64,000 nt of DNA, from NCBI GenBank assembly GCA_944363925.1, contig CALVVS010000001.1, positions 450-64,449 on the forward strand, in the 5' to 3' direction. Numbering within the stretch: position 1 is the stretch's first letter; each line of letters starts with the position of its first letter. Under the pieces are notes generated by a model. It did not search any database. It was given only the letters and a program-made list of their open reading frames with translations, and was not told the DNA's origin. The stretch is from an uncultured Bacilli bacterium. Its GTDB lineage: Bacteria; Bacillota_I; Bacilli_A; RF39; UBA660. A program made the translations under genes and the position numbers. This document shows, one piece after another, positions 1 through 50,862 of the stretch.

Positions 1-3000
1 GATGGTCCATCATGTTTCATTGCCTCACTAATCGCTTTTATCGTCTGCATCATATTAGCCCCAAGTGATACCTGCGCCACATAAACATTTGGATAAGCCA
101 TTGCTATCCTAGCAAAATCTTTTTTGTAATTCTTCTTTCCGTGAGATGCAAACTGCGCCACCATACCTTCCGGCGTCGCCTTCGAAGCCTGACCACCAGT
201 ATTTGAATATACCTGCGTATCTAAAACTAAAATATTAATATTATCTCCACTAGACAAAACATGGTCAATTCCACCAAAACCAATATCATATGCCCAGCCA
301 TCGCCACCGATAGCCCACACGTTTTTAGCAATAATATAGTTCTTAAGTTCCCTTAATCGTGGATGTTTATCATAATTAACCTTGTCATAAACCTCTTTCG
401 TAGTAGCATAATCATTAGAATTATTAAGCCACTTATCAAATAGTTCATCCCTATTATTAAGCATATACTCCCTAACCATATTCTTGCCATACTCAAAACC
501 ACTTAACATACCATAGCCAAATTCCGCATTATCCTCAAATAAACTGTTAGCCCATGAAACACTGTATGGCGCATTTGGAAGCTCCCCTCCATAAATAGAA
601 GAACATCCTGTCGCATTCGCAATCACTAAACTGTCCGAAGCAAGCTGCGTAAGTAACTTAATATAAGCTGTCTCCCCGCATCCTGCACAAGCTCCATGAA
701 AAGCAAACTTAGGAGAAATAAGTTGACTTCCCTTAATAGTCTCCTTCTTAAAATTATCCTTAACAGAAACATTTTTAACCAAATAATCAAAAATCAAATC
801 ATTTTTACTATCCGCAAGCTTGCCAAAAGCCAAAGCCTTTTGGCCTCTCAAACCAGGACATGTATTTATACACACCCCGCATCCCGTACAATTCTTCGCC
901 GAAATACCAATAATATAATAATAATTAGGCGCACCAAACGCCGGCTTGCACCTTTCCTTAACATATAAAGGCGCTTTTTCATACTCCAAAGCATCAAGTA
1001 AAAATGGTCTAATAACCCCATGTGGACACACAAGCGAACACATACTGCACTGCGTACAATTTTCTAAAATCCATTCAGGCACAAACTCCGCAATATTCTG
1101 CATCTCAGGTTCCGTATGTATAAACGTTCCGTCTTCATGTCCCTTAAAATCAGAAACCTTAAGTTCATTACCCTTCCTGTGCTCCAAAGCTGAATAAATA
1201 TCATAAACATCAAAATTAAGCTCCGCATCCACATCATCTAACTCTATCTTTCTAAATGAAACATCCTGCAAAGCCGCAATATTATTTAAAGCAACCTCCT
1301 TGCTTTTAACCCCAAACTTTCTCATAACATAATCTTCAAGTTTAAGTAAAGCCTTATCCGTATCCACAAAATCGATAAACTCAAACATCGCTCTTTCCAT
1401 AATCATACTTATCTTCCGGCCCAAATTATGCTTTCTAGCAATCCCATCCGCATCAATCACATATACCGAAATATCATTATTCCTCAAAAACTTCTTATAT
1501 CCCTTTAAAGCCTCCAAAAGAGCAGTATCATCCATAGACGTATTTATCAAAAGTGTGCCACCATGTTTAAGTTTAGTAACTGCATCAAATAAAGATAAAT
1601 AAGTATCCTTAGCAATAAGCACTAATTCAGCACTATTCACAAAATAAGTCGACCTTATAGGTCTATCTGCAAACCTTAAATGACTGCAGGTCACACCACC
1701 TGACTTTTTAGAATCATACTCAAAATATCCTTGAACATACTTGTCCTCGCAAATACTAAGTAATGACTTGCTAGAACTAATCATCCCATCACTGCCATAG
1801 CCATACACTAAAGCCTCAAAACAGTCATTAATATCAATATCATCATAATTCAAACTCAAATTAGTCACATCATCGTCAATACCAATTGTAAACTCTTCCT
1901 TCGGTTCATCCAGCATATCATAAATAGCCTTAATCATGCCAGGTGTAACATCCTTACTAGAAAGGCCATAACGACCATGACAAATAACAATATCTTTACC
2001 CTTCAAACAGCTAACCACATCTAAATATAAAGGCTCACCCGCACTACCAGCTTCCTTAGTCCTATCTAATACCGCAATCTTACTTACACTATCAGGTAAA
2101 ACATCTAATAAAAACTCCGCACTAAAAGGCCTATATAAATGAACCTCAATAAGACCAATCTCTGAAGAAGAAAAATCTATAAACTCCTTAATCGTCTCAC
2201 AAACAGACCCCATAGCTACAATAACCTTCTTAGCCTTTAAAGATCCATAATAATTAAAAGGTTTATAATTAGTCCCCGCAAGCGCATTTATCTTATCCAT
2301 ATAATCTTTAACAATCAAAGGTACCCTATCATAAAACCTATTCCTCGACTCCGTCTCCTGAAAATAAATATCTCCATTTTGATTAGTACCCCTAGTAACC
2401 GGTGCCTCATTATTTAAAGCTCTCTCCCTAAACTCTTCTAGTTTTTCCACCTGAATAAGCTTTTTAATTTCCAAATTATCAAGTAAATTTATCTTATTAA
2501 GTTCATGACTAGTTCTAAAACCATCAAAGAAATGTAAAAATGGCAAAGAAGCTTCTATACTAGCTAAATGACTAACTAAAGCCAAATCATAAGCCTCCTG
2601 AACAGAAGACGATGCCAGCATACAAAAACCCGTACTCCTAGTCGCATAAATATCCTGATGGTCCCCAAAAATGCTAAGAGCATGCGTCGCCAAAGAACGC
2701 GCCGCCACATGAATAACACAAGGCAGCATCTCACCTGCAATCTTATACATATCTGGAATCATCAAAAGTAAGCCTTGACTAGCTGTATAAGTCGAAGCTA
2801 AAACACCCATCTGTAAAGCACCATGCACTAAGCCAATAGCCCCCGCTTCACTTTGCATCTCTATAACCTTTGGTACTGTTCCAAATATATTTTCTCTGCC
2901 TTCTGCTGACCACTTGTCAATAAGCTCTGGCATCGGACTAGAAGGGGTAATCGGATATATTCCAAGCACCTCACTAAACAAATACGAAGCCTGCACGCAA

Positions 3001-3031
3001 GCTTCATTACCATCACAAACTATCTGTTTCA
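1..3031 (-). CDS. nifJ: Pyruvate:ferredoxin (flavodoxin) oxidoreductase. The N-terminal roughly 1010 aa are present; the C-terminus runs off the window edge.
   Basis: Minus-strand translation from ATG at 3029-3031 (RBS GGGAGTG upstream) gives MKQIVCDGNEACVQASYLFSEVLGIYPITPSSPM. Downstream are two ferredoxin-type Cys clusters (CTGCGVC..CP) and the TPP motif GGDGWAYDIGFGG near nt 300. It is not in the ORF track because there is no stop codon within the window. Confidence 0.9.
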
Positions 3032-3043
3032 TATAATCACTCC

Positions 3044-3466
3044 CTATTTATGACAATCATCATCTGGATTGACAAAATTAACCGTATATTCAAAATCACT
3101 ACCATTACTAGTTGTAATAACCACGCTGTCACCATCCGCATAAGGCTCATCTGTCATTGGATTTTCTAACTCATCTTCTATATAGCCACCTTTAATAACC
3201 TGACCATTAATCTCACCGCCATCGTGTAATACACTAACCGCAATCGAAACTGACCCCGAAGCATCCGGAAGTATCTCAGGATAATCAATAGCCACCATCT
3301 TCGCCGCATCTATCAAATTAGTCTTTTGAACAGTGCAAGTATCAAACCGGCTTTGTTTCAAATTACTATCAATCGCTCCTACTGCTATAAGCCCTAAAAT
3401 ACTTAAAATAACAATAACTCCAAGTAACTCCGCCAAAGTAAAGCCATTGCGTAAAGCCTTCTTCAA
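3044..3466 (-). CDS. Type IV pilin/pseudopilin-like protein of 140 aa, either fused in frame to the rpe 3' end or started internally at TTG 3464-3466.
   Basis: The C-terminal 140 aa of ORF 3044..4081 read (L/M)KKALRNG-FTLAELLGVIVILSILGLIAVGAI. This is a class III (prepilin) signal: short basic leader, Gly, Phe+1, Glu+5, hydrophobic helix. It ends with a Cys-containing globular part (..TCTVQ..DDDCHK). AGG lies 9 nt upstream of the TTG. Confidence 0.6.
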   Translation of the reverse strand: MKKALRNGFTLAELLGVIVILSILGLIAVGAIDSNLKQSRFDTCTVQKTNLIDAAKMVAIDYPEILPDASGSVSIAVSVLHDGGEINGQVIKGGYIEDELENPMTDEPYADGDSVVITTSNGSDFEYTVNFVNPDDDCHK

Positions 3467-4081
3467 TTTATAAACCTGACTCTGATAATTATCACTATCC
3501 GTAATAAATGAACCAGCCACTACTATATCAGCTTTTTTAACCAGCCTTATAGTCGTATCATTAATACCGCCATCAACCTCTATCAAATAAGATAAATTAT
3601 TCTCTTTTCGGTAGTGCAAAAGAATATCAAGCCTTTCCGTAATATCGATAAAAGACTGCCCGCCAGCTCCCGCCTTGACACTCATCACTAAAACTAAATC
3701 TATTATATCTAAATATGGATAAATATCCTCAAAATTACTCTTCGGATTAATCGCTAGACCCGCTTTAATTCCTTTTCCGTGAATATAATTAATAACATCT
3801 AAAACATCATCTGCCACCTCAATATGAAAAATAATATAACTAGGTTTTAAAAGTGCCACCTCATCGACATACTTTTTAATATCCTCAACCATTAAATGAA
3901 CATCAAAAGGCTTTTTTAAAGATAAAATTGCACCTTTCATTTTATCCAAAGATAAAGTCGCCTTCTCTGTAAACTTTCCATCCATAATATCAAAGTGAAT
4001 TAAATCACAAACTCTATCTAACTCCCTTATCTTCTCAAAATCATTTTGAATTTTCAAAAAAGACCCCGCAACCTTAACCAT
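3467..4081 (-). CDS. rpe: Ribulose-phosphate 3-epimerase. This is the Rpe portion of a 345-aa ORF that continues in frame into a pilin-like domain.
   Basis: MVKVAGSFLKIQNDFEKIRELDRVCDLIHFDIMDGKF..., HLMVEDIKKY, SVKAGAGGQSF, EVDGGIND are a typical Rpe TIM-barrel. It sits after rsgA, as in the Bacillus yloN-prpC-prkC-cpgA-rpe operon. Confidence 0.85.
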
Positions 4082-14260: not shown

Positions 14261-15786
<1,526 letters not shown>

Positions 15787-15800
15787 ATAAAAATCAATGC

Positions 15801-16025
15801 TTACATATACTTTTGCATTGATTTCATCATCTGATTAACTTGTTTTTGACTAGGTGTTCTGCCCATACCAGACATCATCGCCTTAATCATTTTCTCATTA
15901 ATTGGTGGATTTTCTTTAAGTTGTTTCTTCATAACTTTTTTGGCTATCAAAAACCCAATAATAACACCAACTATCAAACCACCAATAACTTTTAATAAAT
16001 CTAATAAAAATGCTCCAATATCCAT
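15801..16025 (-). CDS. yneF: UPF0154/YneF-family small membrane protein. Likely start is MDIGAFLL.
   Basis: [67 protein letters not shown] matches the YneF consensus (..KKNPPINE.M.R.MM.QMG.KPS...I.QMM). Confidence 0.8.
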
Positions 16026-16088
16026 TTTATCTGCCTCCAATAACATTTTACTAAAAAAAACCGTTATTAGCAAGCAATATCCAAATAT

Positions 16089-16226
16089 TTAAGCATTTAC
16101 CATAACATTTACGCCATCATCTTGGGTATGACTGCTTACCATTGTATTTTCCGATGCACTAACATAACTTACTCCTAAAACCATTACAACTAAAGCAATA
16201 ACTGCCTTACATTTTAAAAATTCCAT
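16089..16226 (-). CDS. 45-aa membrane peptide divergent from lexA, with a LexA box in its promoter spacer. It is a candidate SOS-induced cell-division inhibitor (SosA/YneA analogue). Not in the ORF track.
   Basis: RBS GGGAGG-8nt-ATG. MEFLKCKAVIALVVMVLGVSYVSASENTMVSSHTQDDGVNVMVNA has an N-terminal TM/signal-like helix. Promoter TTGACA-17-TATGAT with CGAACAAACATTCG inside the spacer. Confidence 0.6.
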   Translation of the reverse strand: MEFLKCKAVIALVVMVLGVSYVSASENTMVSSHTQDDGVNVMVNA

Positions 16227-16261
16227 ATTTCATACCTCCCTTTGACACCTTAATCATATCA

Positions 16262-16275
16262 CGAACAAACATTCG
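16262..16275. promoter_or_regulatory. LexA operator (Cheo/SOS box) CGAACAAACATTCG
   Basis: Matches the Firmicute consensus CGAAC-N4-GTTCG with one mismatch. It lies in the spacer of the divergent peptide promoter, 85 bp upstream of lexA. Confidence 0.75.
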
Positions 16276-16289
16276 TGTCAATACCATTT

Positions 16290-16305
16290 TCAAACAAATG
16301 TTTGA
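16290..16305. promoter_or_regulatory. Second SOS-box-like inverted repeat TCAAAC-AAAT-GTTTGA overlapping the -35 (TTGACT) of the lexA promoter
   Basis: Perfect 5-bp arms with 4-bp spacer and the same geometry as GAAC-N4-GTTC. It is followed by TTGACT-17-TAAAAT and RBS AGGAGG. Confidence 0.5.
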
Positions 16306-16359
16306 CTAAAATAAAATCTTGTGTTAAAATGTGTATATAATATGTTTAGGAGGAAAAAA

Positions 16360-16977
16360 ATGGAAAAATTAACCCGTAGACAAACCGATGTTTTAAATTA
16401 TGTCAAATCATATATTGTATCTCATGGCTATCCACCAACCGTAAGAGAAATAGGCAAAGCCCTAGATATTTCATCCCCTGCCACTATTCATGCTCATCTA
16501 AATAATTTAGAAAAAAAAGGCTTTATAAAAAAAGAAAACTCTAAAAATAGAGCTATCGAACTTCTTGTAAAAAATGAATTTGAACCCGAAAACGAATTAG
16601 TCGCCGAAGTCCCATTACTAGGTAAAATAACCGCTGGCTCGCCTATCGAAGCTATCGAAATGCCTGACGAATACTTCGCCTTACCTTCATACCTATTACC
16701 TAAAGGTAAAGAAGTTTTCACCTTAAAAGTTGATGGTACCAGTATGATAAACGCCGGCATTTTAGATGGTGACATCGTCATCGTTGAAAGACGAAATAGT
16801 GCTAGAAACGGTGAAATAGTCGTTGCCATGACTGATGAAAATGAAGTAACTCTTAAAACTTTTTACAAAGAAAATGGTCACTTTAGACTTCAACCAGAAA
16901 ACGACACAATGGACCCTATCATTTTAGAAAACGTCACTATACTAGGTAAAGCAATTGGTTTATATAGAAAAATATAA
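16360..16977 (+). CDS. lexA: LexA repressor. Start taken at MEKLTRRQ after RBS AGGAGG; the ORF track starts at 16321.
   Basis: wHTH N-terminus, Ala-Gly cleavage site (KITAGSP), and S24 peptidase Ser/Lys (VDGTSM ... TLKTF). Confidence 0.92.
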   Translation: MEKLTRRQTDVLNYVKSYIVSHGYPPTVREIGKALDISSPATIHAHLNNLEKKGFIKKENSKNRAIELLVKNEFEPENELVAEVPLLGKITAGSPIEAIEMPDEYFALPSYLLPKGKEVFTLKVDGTSMINAGILDGDIVIVERRNSARNGEIVVAMTDENEVTLKTFYKENGHFRLQPENDTMDPIILENVTILGKAIGLYRKI

Positions 16978-17010
16978 AACATGTGAAACAAAACACATGT
17001 TTTTAGTTAT
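16978..17010. terminator. Bidirectional rho-independent terminator between the convergent lexA and repeat-protein genes
   Basis: aacatgtgaaacaaaacacatgtt hairpin flanked by A- and T-runs. Confidence 0.6.
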
Positions 17011-17587
17011 TTTTCTTTAAAACTTTTGATTTTTGACGATTATCCCAAATAACAATATTACAAGATTTTGATAAAACCTTCGATGACATTATCTGTTCAA
17101 TTGGTAAATAAGCCGCCCTAACTTTACGTTCGCGCTTAATAATCTCTGCAATAGCATATTTTAAAGATAAAACATCAGCCTCTTTAACATGACATAAAAA
17201 ATAATACATATACTCGATATCTCCAGCTTTGATTACCTCATCTTCTAATCTAAGTACATCCGCCTCTTCAAAATTTCGGGCAAATAAATACATATAACAA
17301 GCATTTCCACTAGAAATTATTGCCTCTTCCATCTTTTTAATATTAACCCCTTTGACATCTTTAGCTAAATGATACATATAAAAAACATCGTCAGACGCAA
17401 TAATCGCATCCTCTATTTTAGAATAATCTTCAAGCTTAACATTACAGGCAAACTCATACATATATCTAGGCACACCACTGAGTATAATAATATTTTCATA
17501 CTTACTTATATCACCGCTCTTCAAAGCTCCATAAATAAGTAAAGCTCCATTTTTTGAAATATTTTTATCTATCTTAAAATTATCCAT
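17003..17587 (-). CDS. Hypothetical protein with four tandem roughly 33-aa repeats carrying a Y-M-Y-x-F/L motif
   Basis: RYMYEFACNVKLEDY.., VFYMYHLAKDVKGVN.., ACYMYLFARNFEEAD.., IEYMYYFLCHVKEAD.. No TM segment. Confidence 0.5.
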   Translation of the reverse strand: MDNFKIDKNISKNGALLIYGALKSGDISKYENIIILSGVPRYMYEFACNVKLEDYSKIEDAIIASDDVFYMYHLAKDVKGVNIKKMEEAIISSGNACYMYLFARNFEEADVLRLEDEVIKAGDIEYMYYFLCHVKEADVLSLKYAIAEIIKRERKVRAAYLPIEQIMSSKVLSKSCNIVIWDNRQKSKVLKKNN

Positions 17588-17668
17588 CTTAATCCTCCTA
17601 ACAACAATTATCTATTATAACACTATTTTTTAAACATAAACCAAAAAATAACATATTCACAAAATATG

Positions 17669-18484
17669 TTACTTCCTATAATAAGTACTAGACATCCTAT
17701 ACTCGCCATCTTCTAAAACTAAAGCTATCACATTACCAGATACATCCAAAACCTCTTTTTTAGAAGCATCAGTCCAATTAATACCATCAAAACTATATTT
17801 ATAGCTGTAATTATCACCATCTGGATACTCAATTATTAAACCATCCCCATCTTTAAATTGAATACCATCTATAACCTTAATAAGCCTTTTTTTAGTAACC
17901 TCATTTCCCCTTCCATCAGTTGCCTTACACTCTATAACGTAATTACCAACCTCTGCTTTCAAAGTATTCTCACATCTAAAACTAACCTCACCAGAATTAT
18001 CTGTCGCTATAACTCCATCAGATACATCATAACTAAAAACCTCATCAGTTGTAATTGTCACTGCCGAAGGAACCACCAAACGTGGTTTTTTATTATCCGT
18101 AACAATAACCACTCTTTTAAGCTCTTCTAACTCACCTCCATAAGAAGCTTCGTATTTGACCATATAATTTCCTACCTTCGTCGTATCAATCGAACTAACC
18201 TGCCTGTCATCTAAATAATAAGATATAGAAATCAAAGGTGAAACTTTTTTACCATCAAAATAAGCCACCGCCTTCATCTCTTCGTACTTATCATTTATTC
18301 CCACATAAGTAATAAAATTACCATTTAATACTAATCTAAGACCATCTTTTGAAACATTTTCATTTTGAACAATTTCCTTAGCCTCTGGCCTATTTAAATA
18401 ATCAATAATTCTATTTCCAATAAACAAAATAATCAAAAAAATAGTAATCAACGTAACTAGACCTACTAACCGTGCCTTTCTCAT
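17669..18484 (-). CDS. N-terminally membrane-anchored surface protein with bacterial Ig-like domain(s). It lies immediately downstream of two pilin genes and may be pilus-associated.
   Basis: MRKARLVGLVTLITIFLIILFIG anchor, then a beta-rich region with a DUF5011-like Ig segment (..VTITTDEVFSYDVSDGVIATDNSGEVSF..GNYVIECKATDGRGNEV). Confidence 0.55.
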   Translation of the reverse strand: MRKARLVGLVTLITIFLIILFIGNRIIDYLNRPEAKEIVQNENVSKDGLRLVLNGNFITYVGINDKYEEMKAVAYFDGKKVSPLISISYYLDDRQVSSIDTTKVGNYMVKYEASYGGELEELKRVVIVTDNKKPRLVVPSAVTITTDEVFSYDVSDGVIATDNSGEVSFRCENTLKAEVGNYVIECKATDGRGNEVTKKRLIKVIDGIQFKDGDGLIIEYPDGDNYSYKYSFDGINWTDASKKEVLDVSGNVIALVLEDGEYRMSSTYYRK

Positions 18485-18488
18485 AAAA

Positions 18489-18923
18489 TCAGTCCTTATT
18501 CATATTAGCAATCGTGCAGCTATCCGCATCGTTAATATTTTCATTAATCACAATCTCTTTAGATGAAGCTCCTTTTACCACGCAAATATGCGCACTATCA
18601 CTCCATAAAGCAAGCTTCACCTTACCATTTTCATCAATCTCAAACTCTCCCGCATCTGGAAGTTCACCATCCGTTTTAAGTAAATTCTTAACATCATCTG
18701 AACTAGTCTTATAATTAACTAATAAAGTAGGACTTTCATTTAAAGCTTGCTTCTCAGCTTGATAAGTACCAGCTGCCACAACAAGTCCATGCGCTGAATT
18801 AATAAAAGCCTTTTCCCTAGACGACTGAATAACATCTATCACAATTGGCGCTGTTACCACTGCCACAATCGCAATAATCGCAATAACTGCCAGTAACTCC
18901 GCTAAAGTAAAACCTTTTTTCAT
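18489..18923 (-). CDS. Type IV pilin / competence-type pseudopilin. Start at MKKGFTLAELL; the ORF track extends further upstream.
   Basis: MKKG-FTLAELLAVIAIIAIVAVVTAPIVI class III signal peptide. C-terminal Cys pair (HICVV...SCTIA). Confidence 0.8.
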   Translation of the reverse strand: MKKGFTLAELLAVIAIIAIVAVVTAPIVIDVIQSSREKAFINSAHGLVVAAGTYQAEKQALNESPTLLVNYKTSSDDVKNLLKTDGELPDAGEFEIDENGKVKLALWSDSAHICVVKGASSKEIVINENINDADSCTIANMNKD

Positions 18924-18924
18924 A

Positions 18925-19290
18925 TTACTGAGCCTCCTCAACACTATAAACAAACTCCGTCTCACCAACTTTTTCAACGCAAACCTGCGTTAACTGTGAA
19001 AAATCTTCATTTGTCTTTGGGTTTTTAATATCAACAGGTAAATAACCATTACTCTTTAAACTCTCAAGACTTTGGCATGCCCTATCCCCAACATTAGAAG
19101 GCATCTCCTCTAAGTGCTGCGTATAATAATCTTCTCCACCTTTTTTTATCTGTTCGATTTGCGTTTCATATAAATCTTCTCGGCCACTATCTAAAGAACG
19201 GTTAATCGCCGGCACAGTAATAAGTGCAATAACTCCAAGTATCGCAATAACTCCAAGTAATTCTGCTAAAGTAAAACCACCATTTCTCAT
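18925..19290 (-). CDS. Type IV pilin / pseudopilin. Start at MRNGGFTLAELL after RBS AGGTGA.
   Basis: MRNGG-FTLAELLGVIAILGVIALITVPAI prepilin signal. C-terminal Cys pair (RACQS ... QVCVE). Confidence 0.8.
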   Translation of the reverse strand: MRNGGFTLAELLGVIAILGVIALITVPAINRSLDSGREDLYETQIEQIKKGGEDYYTQHLEEMPSNVGDRACQSLESLKSNGYLPVDIKNPKTNEDFSQLTQVCVEKVGETEFVYSVEEAQ

Positions 19291-19364
19291 ATCATCACCT
19301 ATCATAATTATACAACATTTTTATTTCTAAACAAAATAAAAAGTAACTATTTTTCATAATTACT

Positions 19365-21353: not shown

Positions 21354-22433
21354 TTACTTTCTGTGCGCATACTCTTCTTTAACCTCATCATTACTAATTC
21401 CAAACCTTTTTAAAAAGTTATTACCAGATAAAATCAAATAATTAAACCCTTTATGGTCTAAAGTCACCTTATTAAAAATCAAATAATTCAAACGCGCATA
21501 ACTAAGTTCAGCTCCTTGAATTAAATAAGAAGGCCTTTTTAATATCTCTCTTTCTAAAGAAACATCCATCAAAATATCTATTTTTTTATTCAAAGTACTA
21601 ATCGAATAACTATATACATTTGGCAATTTTAAAGTAATAAAAATAGTCTCCTCAGCGGAATATCCCTTACTTAAAAAACAATTAAAAGTCTCTTTTATAT
21701 TCTCTAAACTTAACGTATAAATAGCTGGATTAACACCTGTAACTATATTAATCTCATCTTCACTATATCCAAACTCTTTTAAACACTGTCTTTTACTTTC
21801 CATCCTCGAAATATTCATCACAATAATATTTGAATTTCGGTAAATCATCTTAGCTAATCTATCAGTATCATAACCTTTTGAAAGTAAATAATCATAATTT
21901 TTCTTTAAAAGCTCCAAACTACAAGTATAAATCATCGGCGAATCTTTAATTATTTTATTAATTTCCTTATCATTAAACCCTAAATCCTTAAAGAAATTCC
22001 TTTTATCATTAATTGCATCTACAGATAAACTAAATAAACTAGGAAGCATCACCGTAAATTTATGAACCATACTATTAGAATAACCATAACCTTTTAAAAG
22101 CTCTAACTTACTTAAAATAAGACCCTCGCTAATAGTTAGTAAAGCAGGTAAAATAATAACCATATTTTTCACTTCAGCCTCGCGATATCCAAGTAACTTC
22201 AAAAAGCTAAAACGTTCATTTAACGTTTCAGCTGGATAATTAAACAAAGTTGGATTTAAAGTAGTCATTAAAATAATTTGTTTATTATCATATCCTCTAC
22301 CTTTTAAATAATTAAAAGTTTTAACAACTTTCTTCTCTAAAGTTTCTCTAGCAAGCCTTTTAACCGCATGACTATTAATAATTTTCTCTTGAGCACGCTT
22401 ATCATACCCTAAATTACTTAGTACATCTGACAT
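21354..22433 (-). CDS. mTERF-like helical repeat protein (putative nucleic-acid-binding)
   Basis: At least eight tandem roughly 35-aa repeats of the form L(K/L)xxG(Y/F)sxxxIxxIIxxxPxLLxxSxExLxxxxxFL, for example LKEFGYSEDEINIVTGVNPAIYTLSLENIKETFNCF. This matches the mTERF motif. Confidence 0.6.
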   Translation of the reverse strand: MSDVLSNLGYDKRAQEKIINSHAVKRLARETLEKKVVKTFNYLKGRGYDNKQIILMTTLNPTLFNYPAETLNERFSFLKLLGYREAEVKNMVIILPALLTISEGLILSKLELLKGYGYSNSMVHKFTVMLPSLFSLSVDAINDKRNFFKDLGFNDKEINKIIKDSPMIYTCSLELLKKNYDYLLSKGYDTDRLAKMIYRNSNIIVMNISRMESKRQCLKEFGYSEDEINIVTGVNPAIYTLSLENIKETFNCFLSKGYSAEETIFITLKLPNVYSYSISTLNKKIDILMDVSLEREILKRPSYLIQGAELSYARLNYLIFNKVTLDHKGFNYLILSGNNFLKRFGISNDEVKEEYAHRK

Positions 22434-25437: not shown

Positions 25438-25470
25438 ACTTTCTACCTCCTTTTTCCTAAGACTCGCCAT

Positions 25471-25543
25471 TAAGGTAAAGTAAAACTTTTTTTAACCTTT
25501 TTTGTGCGGTTGTAGATGGAGATCTACACATTTACAAATTTTA
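25471..25543 (-). ncRNA. Putative L21 operon leader (structured 5' UTR)
   Basis: gtagatggagatctac inverted repeat upstream of rplU. Firmicutes commonly carry an L21 leader here. Confidence 0.3.
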
Positions 25544-46977: not shown

Positions 46978-47051
46978 TGGTGCCGCAACGGAGAATCGAA
47001 CGCCGATTAAAGCCTTACCATGGCCTCGTAATACCTTTATACTATTGCGGC
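46978..47051 (-). tRNA. tRNA-Thr (anticodon GGU), CCA encoded
   Basis: Minus strand GCCGCAA..AGGCC-AUGGUAA-GGCUU..UUCGAUU..UUGCGGCACCA. 7-bp acceptor stem, T-loop TTCGATT, anticodon loop with GGT. Consensus promoter TTGCAA-17-TATAAT at 47054-47100. Confidence 0.7.
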
Positions 47052-49659: not shown

Positions 49660-50862
49660 CTATGGAATTCTTAACACTTGACCTATCATTAATGTATTAC
49701 TCGTAAGACCATTTAAATCTTTTAAAGTATTAACTGTCGTTCCAAACCTATTAGCAATACTCCACAAGCTATCGCCACTTTTAACCGTATATGTATTACC
49801 ATCACTAGAAACTTTTAAAACCTGACCAATACTCAAATTATCACTAGTAAGTCCATTTAAACTTTTAAGCTCCGCTACCGTCATACCATATTTATTCGCA
49901 ATATTCCATAAACTATCGCCTGATTTAACAACATAAGTATTGCCAGAAACATTATTAGATAGACCATCAGATACCTTTAAAACCTGACCAATACTTAAAT
50001 TATCGCTAGTAAGTCCATTTAAACTTTTAAGCTCCGCTACCGTCATACCATATTGATTAGCTATCTTCCATAAACTATCACCTGATTTAACCGTATATGT
50101 ATTACCATCATTAGAAACATTAGGTATCTCCAAAATCTGACCAACACTCAAATTATTACTTGTAAGCCCATTTAAACTTTTAAGCTCATCCACACTAATA
50201 CCATATTGATTAGCTATTTTCCATAAACTATCACCGCTTTTAACTACATAATAATTATCTCCACCAGGTAAACTAGGAATATTCTCTCCATTAGCCGTTG
50301 CTATTACAGCATCGACAACAGCATCAACATATTCCTTATAATTATTTTGAATTTTAGCCAAATCCTCAGGATTATCAATAAAACCATACTCAACAATTAC
50401 TGGATGAGTATTACTCCCAGTATTCCTATGAATAAAATAATAATCCTTAGAAGTATCACTAGGAAGTCTTCTTTGATAAAACTTTCTCATCTTCTGTCCA
50501 GCATTTCCAAGTGCCTGTAAAATATTTGAAGCAAGAGTATCATCATCCCTAAGTGCATAGATAACCTCTGCCCCTTCTGCCCCTTGCGTTGCACTACCAG
50601 CAGCGTTAATATGATTAGAAATAATCACCACATTGGGATTATCACCATAAGCCGCCAAAATTCTATTAACTCTCTCAGTCGGTGAAACCGTCTCATCAAT
50701 CGAACGCACTATAGTCACCGGTACACCTCTTTTTTGAAATTCATCATACATATAATTCGCAATCATTAAAGTCAAATCTTTTTCTCTAACACCAGAACTA
50801 CTCACAGCTCCAGGATCACTGCCACCATGACCAGCATCAATTACAACCTGTAAATTATTCAT
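49660..50862 (-). CDS. N-acetylmuramoyl-L-alanine amidase (Amidase_3) with four C-terminal LysM repeats
   Basis: VIDAGHGGSDPGA N-terminus. 4x (YxVKSGDSLWxIANxYG..V..LKxLNGLTS..L.IGQ.L). Confidence 0.88.
   Translation of the reverse strand: MNNLQVVIDAGHGGSDPGAVSSSGVREKDLTLMIANYMYDEFQKRGVPVTIVRSIDETVSPTERVNRILAAYGDNPNVVIISNHINAAGSATQGAEGAEVIYALRDDDTLASNILQALGNAGQKMRKFYQRRLPSDTSKDYYFIHRNTGSNTHPVIVEYGFIDNPEDLAKIQNNYKEYVDAVVDAVIATANGENIPSLPGGDNYYVVKSGDSLWKIANQYGISVDELKSLNGLTSNNLSVGQILEIPNVSNDGNTYTVKSGDSLWKIANQYGMTVAELKSLNGLTSDNLSIGQVLKVSDGLSNNVSGNTYVVKSGDSLWNIANKYGMTVAELKSLNGLTSDNLSIGQVLKVSSDGNTYTVKSGDSLWSIANRFGTTVNTLKDLNGLTSNTLMIGQVLRIP

Follow-up and report, generated by a model that had tools for sequence, protein, structure and literature searches.

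A small membrane protein encoded divergently from lexA in uncultured gut Bacilli is a candidate SOS-induced cell-division inhibitor

What is encoded by the short reading frame that lies back to back with lexA in an uncultured gut bacterium of the RF39 lineage (Bacilli)? The frame is found in a 64,000-nucleotide (nt) stretch of contig CALVVS010000001.1, which we call the window. It occupies positions 16089–16226 of the minus strand, stop codon included, and appears in the list of open reading frames (ORFs) as a protein of 45 amino acids, MEFLKCKAVIALVVMVLGVSYVSASENTMVSSHTQDDGVNVMVNA. The first-pass annotation of this DNA proposed that the peptide is under LexA control and may be a minimal inhibitor of cell division. 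Here we follow up that proposal by comparison with related genomes. Our preferred reading, to which we give a probability of about 0.6, is that the small protein would act as an SOS-induced inhibitor of late cell division and would resemble SosA more than YneA. This reading draws on comparative sequence data and on analogy with characterized inhibitors.

The position of the ORF is what raises the question. In Bacillus, Listeria, Mycobacterium, Corynebacterium and Staphylococcus, the SOS division inhibitors can be recognized by being encoded divergently from lexA (PMC6851548). The Gram-positive inhibitors have little homology to each other, and what is common to all of them is a single transmembrane (TM) segment and an extracellular C-terminus (PMC6851548). 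The small ORF has the marks of this class, represented by YneA, SosA, ChiZ and DivS. It is divergent from lexA with an operator of its own, and its product is predicted to have an N-terminal TM segment and a C-terminus outside the cell.

The intergenic region contains two promoters and two predicted LexA operators. A Shine-Dalgarno sequence, GGGAGG (16235–16240, minus strand), precedes the small ORF, with the ATG 8 nt downstream. The promoter is of the sigma-A type (16253–16281, minus strand), with a −35 element TTGACA (16276–16281), a 17-nt spacer and a TG-extended −10 element TATGAT (16253–16258). It agrees with the consensus at 11 of 12 positions and is the top promoter-like site in 15700–16500. 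Its spacer is filled by predicted operator 1, a Cheo-type box, CGAACAAACATTCG (16262–16275, assigned to neither strand). Predicted operator 2, a weaker variant (TCAAACAAATGTTTGA, 16290–16305; core CAAACAAATGTTTG at 16291–16304), overlaps the −35 element of lexA. The lexA promoter (16302–16330, plus strand) matches 10 of 12 consensus positions and has a −35 element TTGACT (16302–16307), a 17-nt spacer and a −10 element TAAAAT (16325–16330) with TG. The lexA gene (16360–16977, plus strand) encodes 205 amino acids with LexA_DNA_bind (PF01726) and Peptidase_S24 (PF00717) domains, and its true start is the ATG at 16360, which has TAGGAGG in front. The first-pass annotation had named the ORF, its ribosome-binding site, the promoter, the box within the spacer and a second GAAC-like inverted repeat over the lexA −35, and all are present.

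In the window alone, support for operator 1 is modest. It is the sole match with at most one mismatch to CGAACNNNNGTTCG in 64 kb, against a chance expectation of 0.19 such boxes, and at least one box occurred somewhere in the window in 16 of 100 shuffles. The comparative data are overwhelming. We searched the LexA protein against one genome per species and obtained 80 loci. All but two come from uncultured gut Bacilli, with LexA proteins 61–96% identical to that of the window; the others are from Listeria valentina and Gottfriedia, and over the relatives as a whole identity is 53–96%. The source labels of the 78 are Bacilli, Firmicutes, Tenericutes, Candidatus Coprosoma, Scybalousia and Onthousia. 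When the promoters of 64 loci were aligned, the same arrangement was kept in 62: TTGACA, directly followed by the box CGAACAAATGTTCG and then by TGnTAnnnT. The box is given here as its 14-mer consensus over those 62 loci, which we take to be the classical Cheo box of Bacillus LexA sites. Over the 78 loci together, the 150-nt regions upstream of lexA amount to 11.65 kb and contain 52 boxes with at most one mismatch; the other 583 kb contain 3, an enrichment of about 870-fold.

The three boxes outside the lexA upstream regions all belong to one locus, L033. There, lexA and the small ORF are separated by an inserted gene of 274 amino acids that has no Pfam match (2768–3847). The displaced ORF (50 amino acids; 2768–2920, minus strand) has tkt as its next gene and has its own promoter, which holds two of the three boxes. 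Since the boxes accompany the displaced ORF, the operator appears to belong to the small gene, beyond any part in lexA autoregulation. The second site lies about 30 nt nearer lexA, with the consensus CAAACAwTTGTTyG, and its left half is the lexA −35 element read on the other strand. Anchored on GTCAAAC, it is found about 43–56 nt upstream of lexA in all 64 loci. Conservation extends past the anchor into the downstream half, where T/G/T/T is kept in 56–63 of the 64. Operator 2 probably serves lexA autoregulation. The small gene carries its own putative LexA operator inside its promoter and is predicted to be LexA-controlled, as had been proposed from the window sequence.

The reading frame is as well conserved as its promoter. 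An ORF of 28–57 codons with a single predicted TM segment, preceded by a Shine-Dalgarno-like sequence at the spacing seen in the window, lies on the opposite strand 5′ of lexA in 63 of the 78 loci. Its start is 114–149 nt from lexA in 59 of them and 190 nt away in another (L021); in the remaining three (L027, L029 and L030) it is about 315–325 nt away, behind an interposed ORF. With a 28-residue version in L023 and copies moved away from lexA in L033, L050 and L056, at least 67 of the 78 loci have the ORF. The displaced copies lie about 0.9–1.1 kb from lexA, and in L050 and L056 the box is degenerate. One of the 78 loci ends at a contig end.

Selection on the frame was estimated from the ratio of nonsynonymous to synonymous substitution rates (dN/dS). 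Close pairs gave 0.17–0.4 with synonymous sites near saturation (0.18 for L002/L003, 0.17 for L007/L008, and 0.17–0.2 for the tightest pairs of other relatives). The window ORF gave 0.32–0.39 against its two closest orthologs of equal length, L003 (0.32) and L002. Low dN/dS with synonymous sites near saturation argues that the reading frame is under purifying selection. The tail of the small ORF evolves quickly. On these comparisons the small ORF is a real gene under purifying selection. A frame intact in close relatives was one of the checks suggested at the outset, and it is intact in dozens of genomes.

Two variants of the locus were seen among the relatives. In L027, L029 and L030, about 140–330 nt 5′ of lexA, the promoter region nearest lexA is separated from the small membrane ORF by an extra ORF of 62–68 amino acids (MEYYTINDIQILTGY...), which overlaps the start of the membrane ORF. 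Of these three loci, only L030 has a strict LexA box there. A Pfam search of the extra ORFs and the 274-residue gene of L033 gave nothing but a chance-level, below-threshold match to TBCC_N (E = 0.015). In L019, L023 and L037, the version present has 28–32 residues and is essentially a TM helix without the outside tail. The LexA-box arrangement of their promoters is fully conserved. If these short versions are functional, the tail may be dispensable in some lineages.

The neighborhood of the gene gives a second line of argument. Many loci, L006 among them, have lexA and, divergent from it, the small ORF, tkt and yneF in that order. In the window and in L001–L004, tkt is missing and yneF is directly next. 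This order in the relatives matches that of B. subtilis, which we take to be lexA and then, divergently, yneA, yneB, ynzC, tkt and, further on, yneF. In Listeria valentina (L079), an ORF of 109 amino acids fills the same slot at the same offset from lexA; from this position and its LysM-like sequence we take it to be YneA. The small-ORF locus thus corresponds, by gene order, to the yneA position, in agreement with the first-pass view that it mirrors yneA and sosA. Homologs found by sequence alone lie likewise on the opposite strand about 130 nt from lexA (P0015 from Candidatus Faecimonas and P0124 from Candidatus Onthousia). The sole constant partner of the small ORF is lexA. Its 3′ neighbor varies among yneF-tgt, tkt, polA and, in L026, a convergent gene. 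A leader peptide or constant operon partner of yneF-tgt was considered and is ruled out by this variation.

In six Faecimonas and Onthousia contigs (L081–L086), polA usually lies 40–54 nt 3′ of the small ORF on the same strand and may be co-transcribed from the predicted LexA-controlled promoter. One of these contigs has an IS200-type transposase (Y1_Tnp) and a major facilitator superfamily transporter inserted between the small ORF and polA.

What kind of protein is it? The window peptide has a basic N-terminus (MEFLKCK), a hydrophobic helix at about residues 8–25 and an acidic, polar tail of 20 residues that ends in VNVMVNA. Among 285 members, 99% have a net positive charge in the N-terminal flank and 66% a net negative charge in the tail; in the window peptide the tail carries −4. 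This distribution of charge predicts that the N-terminus is inside and the C-terminus outside. AlphaFold2 models the window peptide as a single helix, confident only at about residues 5–25, with a predicted local distance difference test score above 90 in the membrane segment and low confidence in the tail. In the model of a member of the wider family, described below, the helix runs through the TM segment and about 10 residues past it, and the C-terminus is unstructured. We therefore predict a single-pass membrane protein with a cytoplasmic N-terminus and an acidic tail of about 20 residues outside, the architecture that had been read from the sequence at first pass. A lipoprotein is ruled out by the lack of a lipobox, as LKC is not L-[AS]-[GA]-C.

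The protein had also been described as much shorter than YneA and lacking LysM, and this holds for the family as a whole. No LysM domain was found in the 45-residue window protein, in 222 homologs or in 189 cluster representatives. The same method detects LysM in an amidase encoded at 49660–50862 of the window.

Homologs were collected in steps. A phmmer search with the window peptide gave 6 full-length homologs of 44–45 amino acids, 71–98% identical, and one partial match of 39 amino acids. A profile of 55 positional ORFs extended the family to 222 proteins of 45–80 amino acids. No Pfam domain was found in these homologs or in the window ORF. NCBIfam matches over the 55 members at E ≤ 1 were scattered chance matches, with no YneA-type model among them. 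An exhaustive HMMER search of 1.84 billion representative sequences at E ≤ 1e-3 gave at least 189 clusters at 50% identity, nearly all of 39–60 amino acids. The only hit longer than 84 residues among the 189 representatives was a 920-residue protein without an aligned stretch, which we take as spurious.

This wider family has a recognizable layout. A Lys-rich N-terminus is followed by a TM helix with a Tyr (95%) and then by R (97%)-x3-L (96%)-D/E/N, a motif that in the AlphaFold2 model above is covered by the helix past the membrane. A polar stretch then leads to an alternating hydrophobic and polar C-terminus (h-x-h-x-h) that usually ends in Lys. In the window subfamily, (D/E)-N-x-x-h replaces R-x3-L-(D/E), and the end is h-N-A. 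The two groups were joined by a bridging hidden Markov model (HMM) trained on intermediate loci L011–L034 only and tested on 1,164 small ORFs. The held-out window ORF scored E = 1.6e-7, and it and all of L001–L010 outranked every unrelated ORF. Wider-family members L078 (1e-5), L045 (6e-5) and L048 (1e-4) also came ahead of the first unrelated ORF (E = 0.065). We therefore treat the window subfamily and the wider group as one probable, fast-diverging superfamily of positional orthologs. Full-text literature searches turned up no paper describing this family. What is new is the protein family, for which neither Pfam nor NCBIfam has a model; systems of this kind are already known. The family occurs widely among uncultured gut Bacilli, and among Gram-positive candidates of its class it is the shortest.

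Of the characterized inhibitors, SosA of S. aureus (77 amino acids) is the closest in kind. It too is divergent from lexA and LexA-controlled, with an N-terminal TM segment, an outside C-terminus and no LysM (PMC6851548). SosA activity depends on extracellular residues next to the membrane, and its extreme C-terminus governs CtpA-dependent turnover (PMC6851548). In the wider family, too, conservation is found just outside the membrane, in R-x3-L-D/E, and at the extreme C-terminus, in the h-x-h-x-h-K end. SosA, ChiZ and SidA are predicted to contact FtsW, SosA by an extended helix in place of LysM (PMC13396833), and the helix of the wider family is likewise predicted to run past the membrane. 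Both also evolve fast, SosA being 25–60% identical within staphylococci (PMC6851548). The differences are of size and source. The window peptide has 45 residues (39–60 in the family) against 77, and the part outside has about 20–25 residues against about 40; taken as a whole, the family falls short of SosA by about 20–30 residues. The family comes from uncultured gut Bacilli and was compared with SosA by description only. The exhaustive search listed no 77-residue protein, and hits of 73–84 residues either matched C-terminally or consisted of the motif plus extra sequence.

YneA of B. subtilis and Listeria (about 103–109 amino acids) shares the slot, Cheo-type boxes and a single TM segment with the N-terminus inside (PMC13396833, PMC6051672). 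The small protein differs from it in having no LysM and under half the length.

At the other extreme of size is SidA of Caulobacter crescentus, which has about 29 amino acids and is not known to adjoin lexA. SidA is a precedent for division inhibition by a bare TM peptide, and three of the relatives here are also of 28–32 residues. It differs in coming from a Gram-negative alphaproteobacterium, in the type of its LexA box and in having no outside tail. Three papers report or predict that this very small SOS-induced membrane peptide acts on FtsW and late division proteins, not on FtsZ (PMC6851548, PMC6051672, PMC13396833). SOS-induced membrane inhibitors without LysM (SosA), and even smaller ones (SidA), are thus already known.

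A division inhibitor needs a division machinery to act on. The window encodes the division proteins FtsZ, FtsA and DivIB and the wall and shape proteins MurG, MurB, a Mur ligase, MreC and MreD. It also encodes a PASTA kinase, a sortase, two LD-carboxypeptidases and the amidase mentioned above, which has four LysM repeats. The gene content is that of an organism with a cell wall and a normal division machinery, which makes a division target plausible. Many relatives are labeled Tenericutes or Mycoplasmatota, and loss of the wall was considered as a cause of the missing LysM. The wall and division genes rule this out, so the absence of LysM is not explained by loss of peptidoglycan.

From these parts a mechanism can be proposed. 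LexA would repress the small-ORF promoter through the operator in its −35/−10 spacer, and the weaker second operator, over the lexA −35, would give lexA autoregulation. Upon DNA damage, RecA-stimulated self-cleavage of LexA would relieve both promoters of repression, and the peptide would be synthesized. It would enter the membrane and meet the late division machinery, most likely the septal wall synthase formed by FtsW and a penicillin-binding protein (PBP). Contact would be made through the membrane helix and the segment that borders the membrane on the outside, and septum closure would be delayed until repair is finished. A membrane protease or a C-terminal protease would then remove the peptide. 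We infer induction by damage, inhibition of division, the target and turnover by a protease by analogy with the known inhibitors.

A more specific proposal is that a peptide of 45–57 residues arrests septal wall synthesis without any peptidoglycan-binding domain, which would make it the smallest Gram-positive checkpoint effector. The helix would dock on FtsW-PBP, and the extension and C-terminus would block the outer face. The proposed parts are a helical extension of 10 residues, with R-x3-L-D/E in most members, and a short strand-like C-terminus. We offer this proposal tentatively and think it more apt to be wrong in some part than right throughout.

Several observations weigh against the preferred reading of an SOS-induced division inhibitor. 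The first concern the family. The window subfamily lacks the three near-invariant residues, Tyr, Arg and Leu, and the HMM of the wider family does not detect it above noise. The window peptide is therefore linked to the R-x3-L group only transitively, by way of intermediate sequences. Others concern YneA. Alignment of the 55-member family with Listeria valentina YneA in hhalign gave 0.6% probability over 6 columns, so that similarity to YneA in sequence is not detectable. A 2026 study found that YneA docks through its TM segment on TM7 of FtsW, and that LysM binding to peptidoglycan is needed for inhibition (PMC13396833). The YneA TM segment alone localizes without inhibiting (PMC13396833). 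Since YneA needs LysM, a 20-residue tail would have to act differently. In about 10 of the 78 loci, the sequence covered around lexA, which reaches at most about 4 kb to either side, contains no ORF of this kind; in these, lexA lies opposite tkt, a gene like polA or mutS, or unrelated genes. In these relatives the gene appears to be dispensable or replaced. Finally, neither FtsW nor a CtpA-like protease was seen within the window.

The absence of homology to any characterized inhibitor, and the relatives without the ORF near lexA, could also mean that this is a genuine LexA-regulated small membrane protein with another job. It might modulate a membrane protease, a transporter, wall elongation, competence or the SOS response itself. 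All of the evidence for a real LexA-controlled membrane protein fits this explanation equally. Yet every studied Gram-positive single-TM gene divergent from lexA that is listed in PMC6851548 is a division inhibitor, and no conserved neighbor suggests an alternative function. We regard another job as unlikely.

A lower probability, in our judgment a small one, goes to an SOS-induced membrane toxin of the TisB/DinQ type, which would lower the proton-motive force or disturb the membrane and promote dormancy or persistence. The peptide is a LexA-regulated single helix of similar size, and E. coli has SOS-controlled toxic single-TM peptides, such as DinQ (PMC3567139). TisB and DinQ also have a single TM segment, a length of some tens of residues and control by LexA, together with antisense or small RNA antitoxins and an action on membrane energetics (PMC3567139). 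Here neither an antisense promoter nor an RNA family nor a conserved partner was found, and the locus is bound to lexA. The plus strand has no promoter-like site between 15700 and 16288, and no Rfam family was found in 15700–16450, although an unrecognized small RNA could still escape. The 3′ context differs among relatives, so there is no conserved downstream or antisense partner. The R-x3-L-D/E motif, the h-x-h-x-h C-terminus and the acidic tail outside the membrane suggest specific recognition and not bulk damage to the membrane. The steady association with lexA in the slot of yneA fits division inhibitors; tisB and dinQ are not known to adjoin lexA.

The hydrophobic core is short (about 12–15 residues) in the window peptide and its nearest relatives, and the small residues after it fit the −3/−1 rule (VSA/S, ISA/L, IGA/M, IGG/L, LGA/D). 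The helix could then be a cleavable Sec signal peptide, with the acidic tail of about 20 residues released as a damage-induced secreted peptide, either a signal or an antimicrobial. B. subtilis YneA is indeed released to the medium when overexpressed, but activity is attributed to its full-length membrane form (PMC6051672). The small-residue site is absent from most of the family (sequences such as ...LCLFLATDRIERLD and ...LLVNLRFSRL offer no plausible cut for a signal peptidase), and conservation is highest in and next to the helix, outside the would-be mature peptide. The helix-only relatives of 28–32 residues would make no sense as a secreted product. We consider secretion very unlikely.

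That the ORF is a chance frame in the lexA regulatory region, or in the 5′ region of the yneF-tgt operon, might be argued from its very short length, the lack of Pfam and NCBIfam matches and homologs that are mostly unnamed or named just ‘hypothetical protein’, but it is effectively refuted by comparison: frame, Shine-Dalgarno sequence and length are kept in at least 67 genomes despite synonymous saturation, dN/dS is well under 1, there are 189 clusters at 50% identity, and the ORF persists beside differing downstream genes and when displaced from lexA.

The surroundings of the locus in the window can be described briefly. On the same strand, 63 nt 3′ of the small ORF, lies a gene of the UPF0154/YneF family (15801–16025, minus strand; PF03672, 2e-28), followed by a 140-residue gene without a family match and then tgt. 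No intrinsic terminator was found between the small ORF and the yneF-like gene. A fold in the 63-nt gap (16030–16076, minus strand) pairs the Shine-Dalgarno sequence of the yneF-like gene (16033–16040); with z = −1.95 against shuffles it is marginal and not convincing. The yneF-like gene is possibly co-transcribed with the small ORF in the window genome only, and we take it as context and not as a constant partner. On the other side, 3′ of lexA and on the opposite strand, a 194-residue gene without a family is followed by three further genes (17003–19305, minus strand). These include an immunoglobulin-like surface protein (17669–18484, minus strand) and two genes with a prepilin motif, comG-like pseudopilins (18489–18977 and 18925–19305, minus strand).

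Other observations in the window are unconnected with the small ORF. A 345-residue ORF (3044–4081, minus strand) has a ribulose-phosphate 3-epimerase domain (residues 7–193) fused in frame, with no stop between, to a prepilin-type methylation motif and pilin-like tail, ...KKALRNGFTLAELLGVIVIL... (residues 211–233). It is either a true fusion or the result of a missed internal start or a sequencing issue. A 359-residue protein with three mTERF repeats (PF02536, E = 1e-33) is encoded at 21354–22433 (minus strand), next to nusB and the gene for the exonuclease VII large subunit. The mTERF family is characteristic of organelles, and a bacterial member is unusual. At the gathering threshold, Rfam gave only an L21 leader (RF00559, 60.9 bits), upstream of rplU, and one tRNA gene in the whole window (the two sites are 25450–25521 and 46981–47051, both minus strand).

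Only a few cultured species are known to have SOS-induced membrane inhibitors of late division, and these share so little sequence that annotation overlooks them. A large unnamed family of at least 189 clusters fills the slot of yneA and sosA in uncultured Bacilli that abound in the gut. It supplies a rule of position and regulation for recognizing genes of this kind: about 130 nt upstream of lexA, on the other strand, there is a strong promoter with a LexA box inside it. Should the peptides indeed arrest division, they would show how little protein is needed, without a wall-binding domain. They would be a minimal natural peptide inhibitor of a SEDS (shape, elongation, division and sporulation) polymerase in Bacilli of the human and animal gut, and peptide inhibitors of FtsW-type synthases could be designed with their conserved helix and the motifs next to the membrane as a guide.

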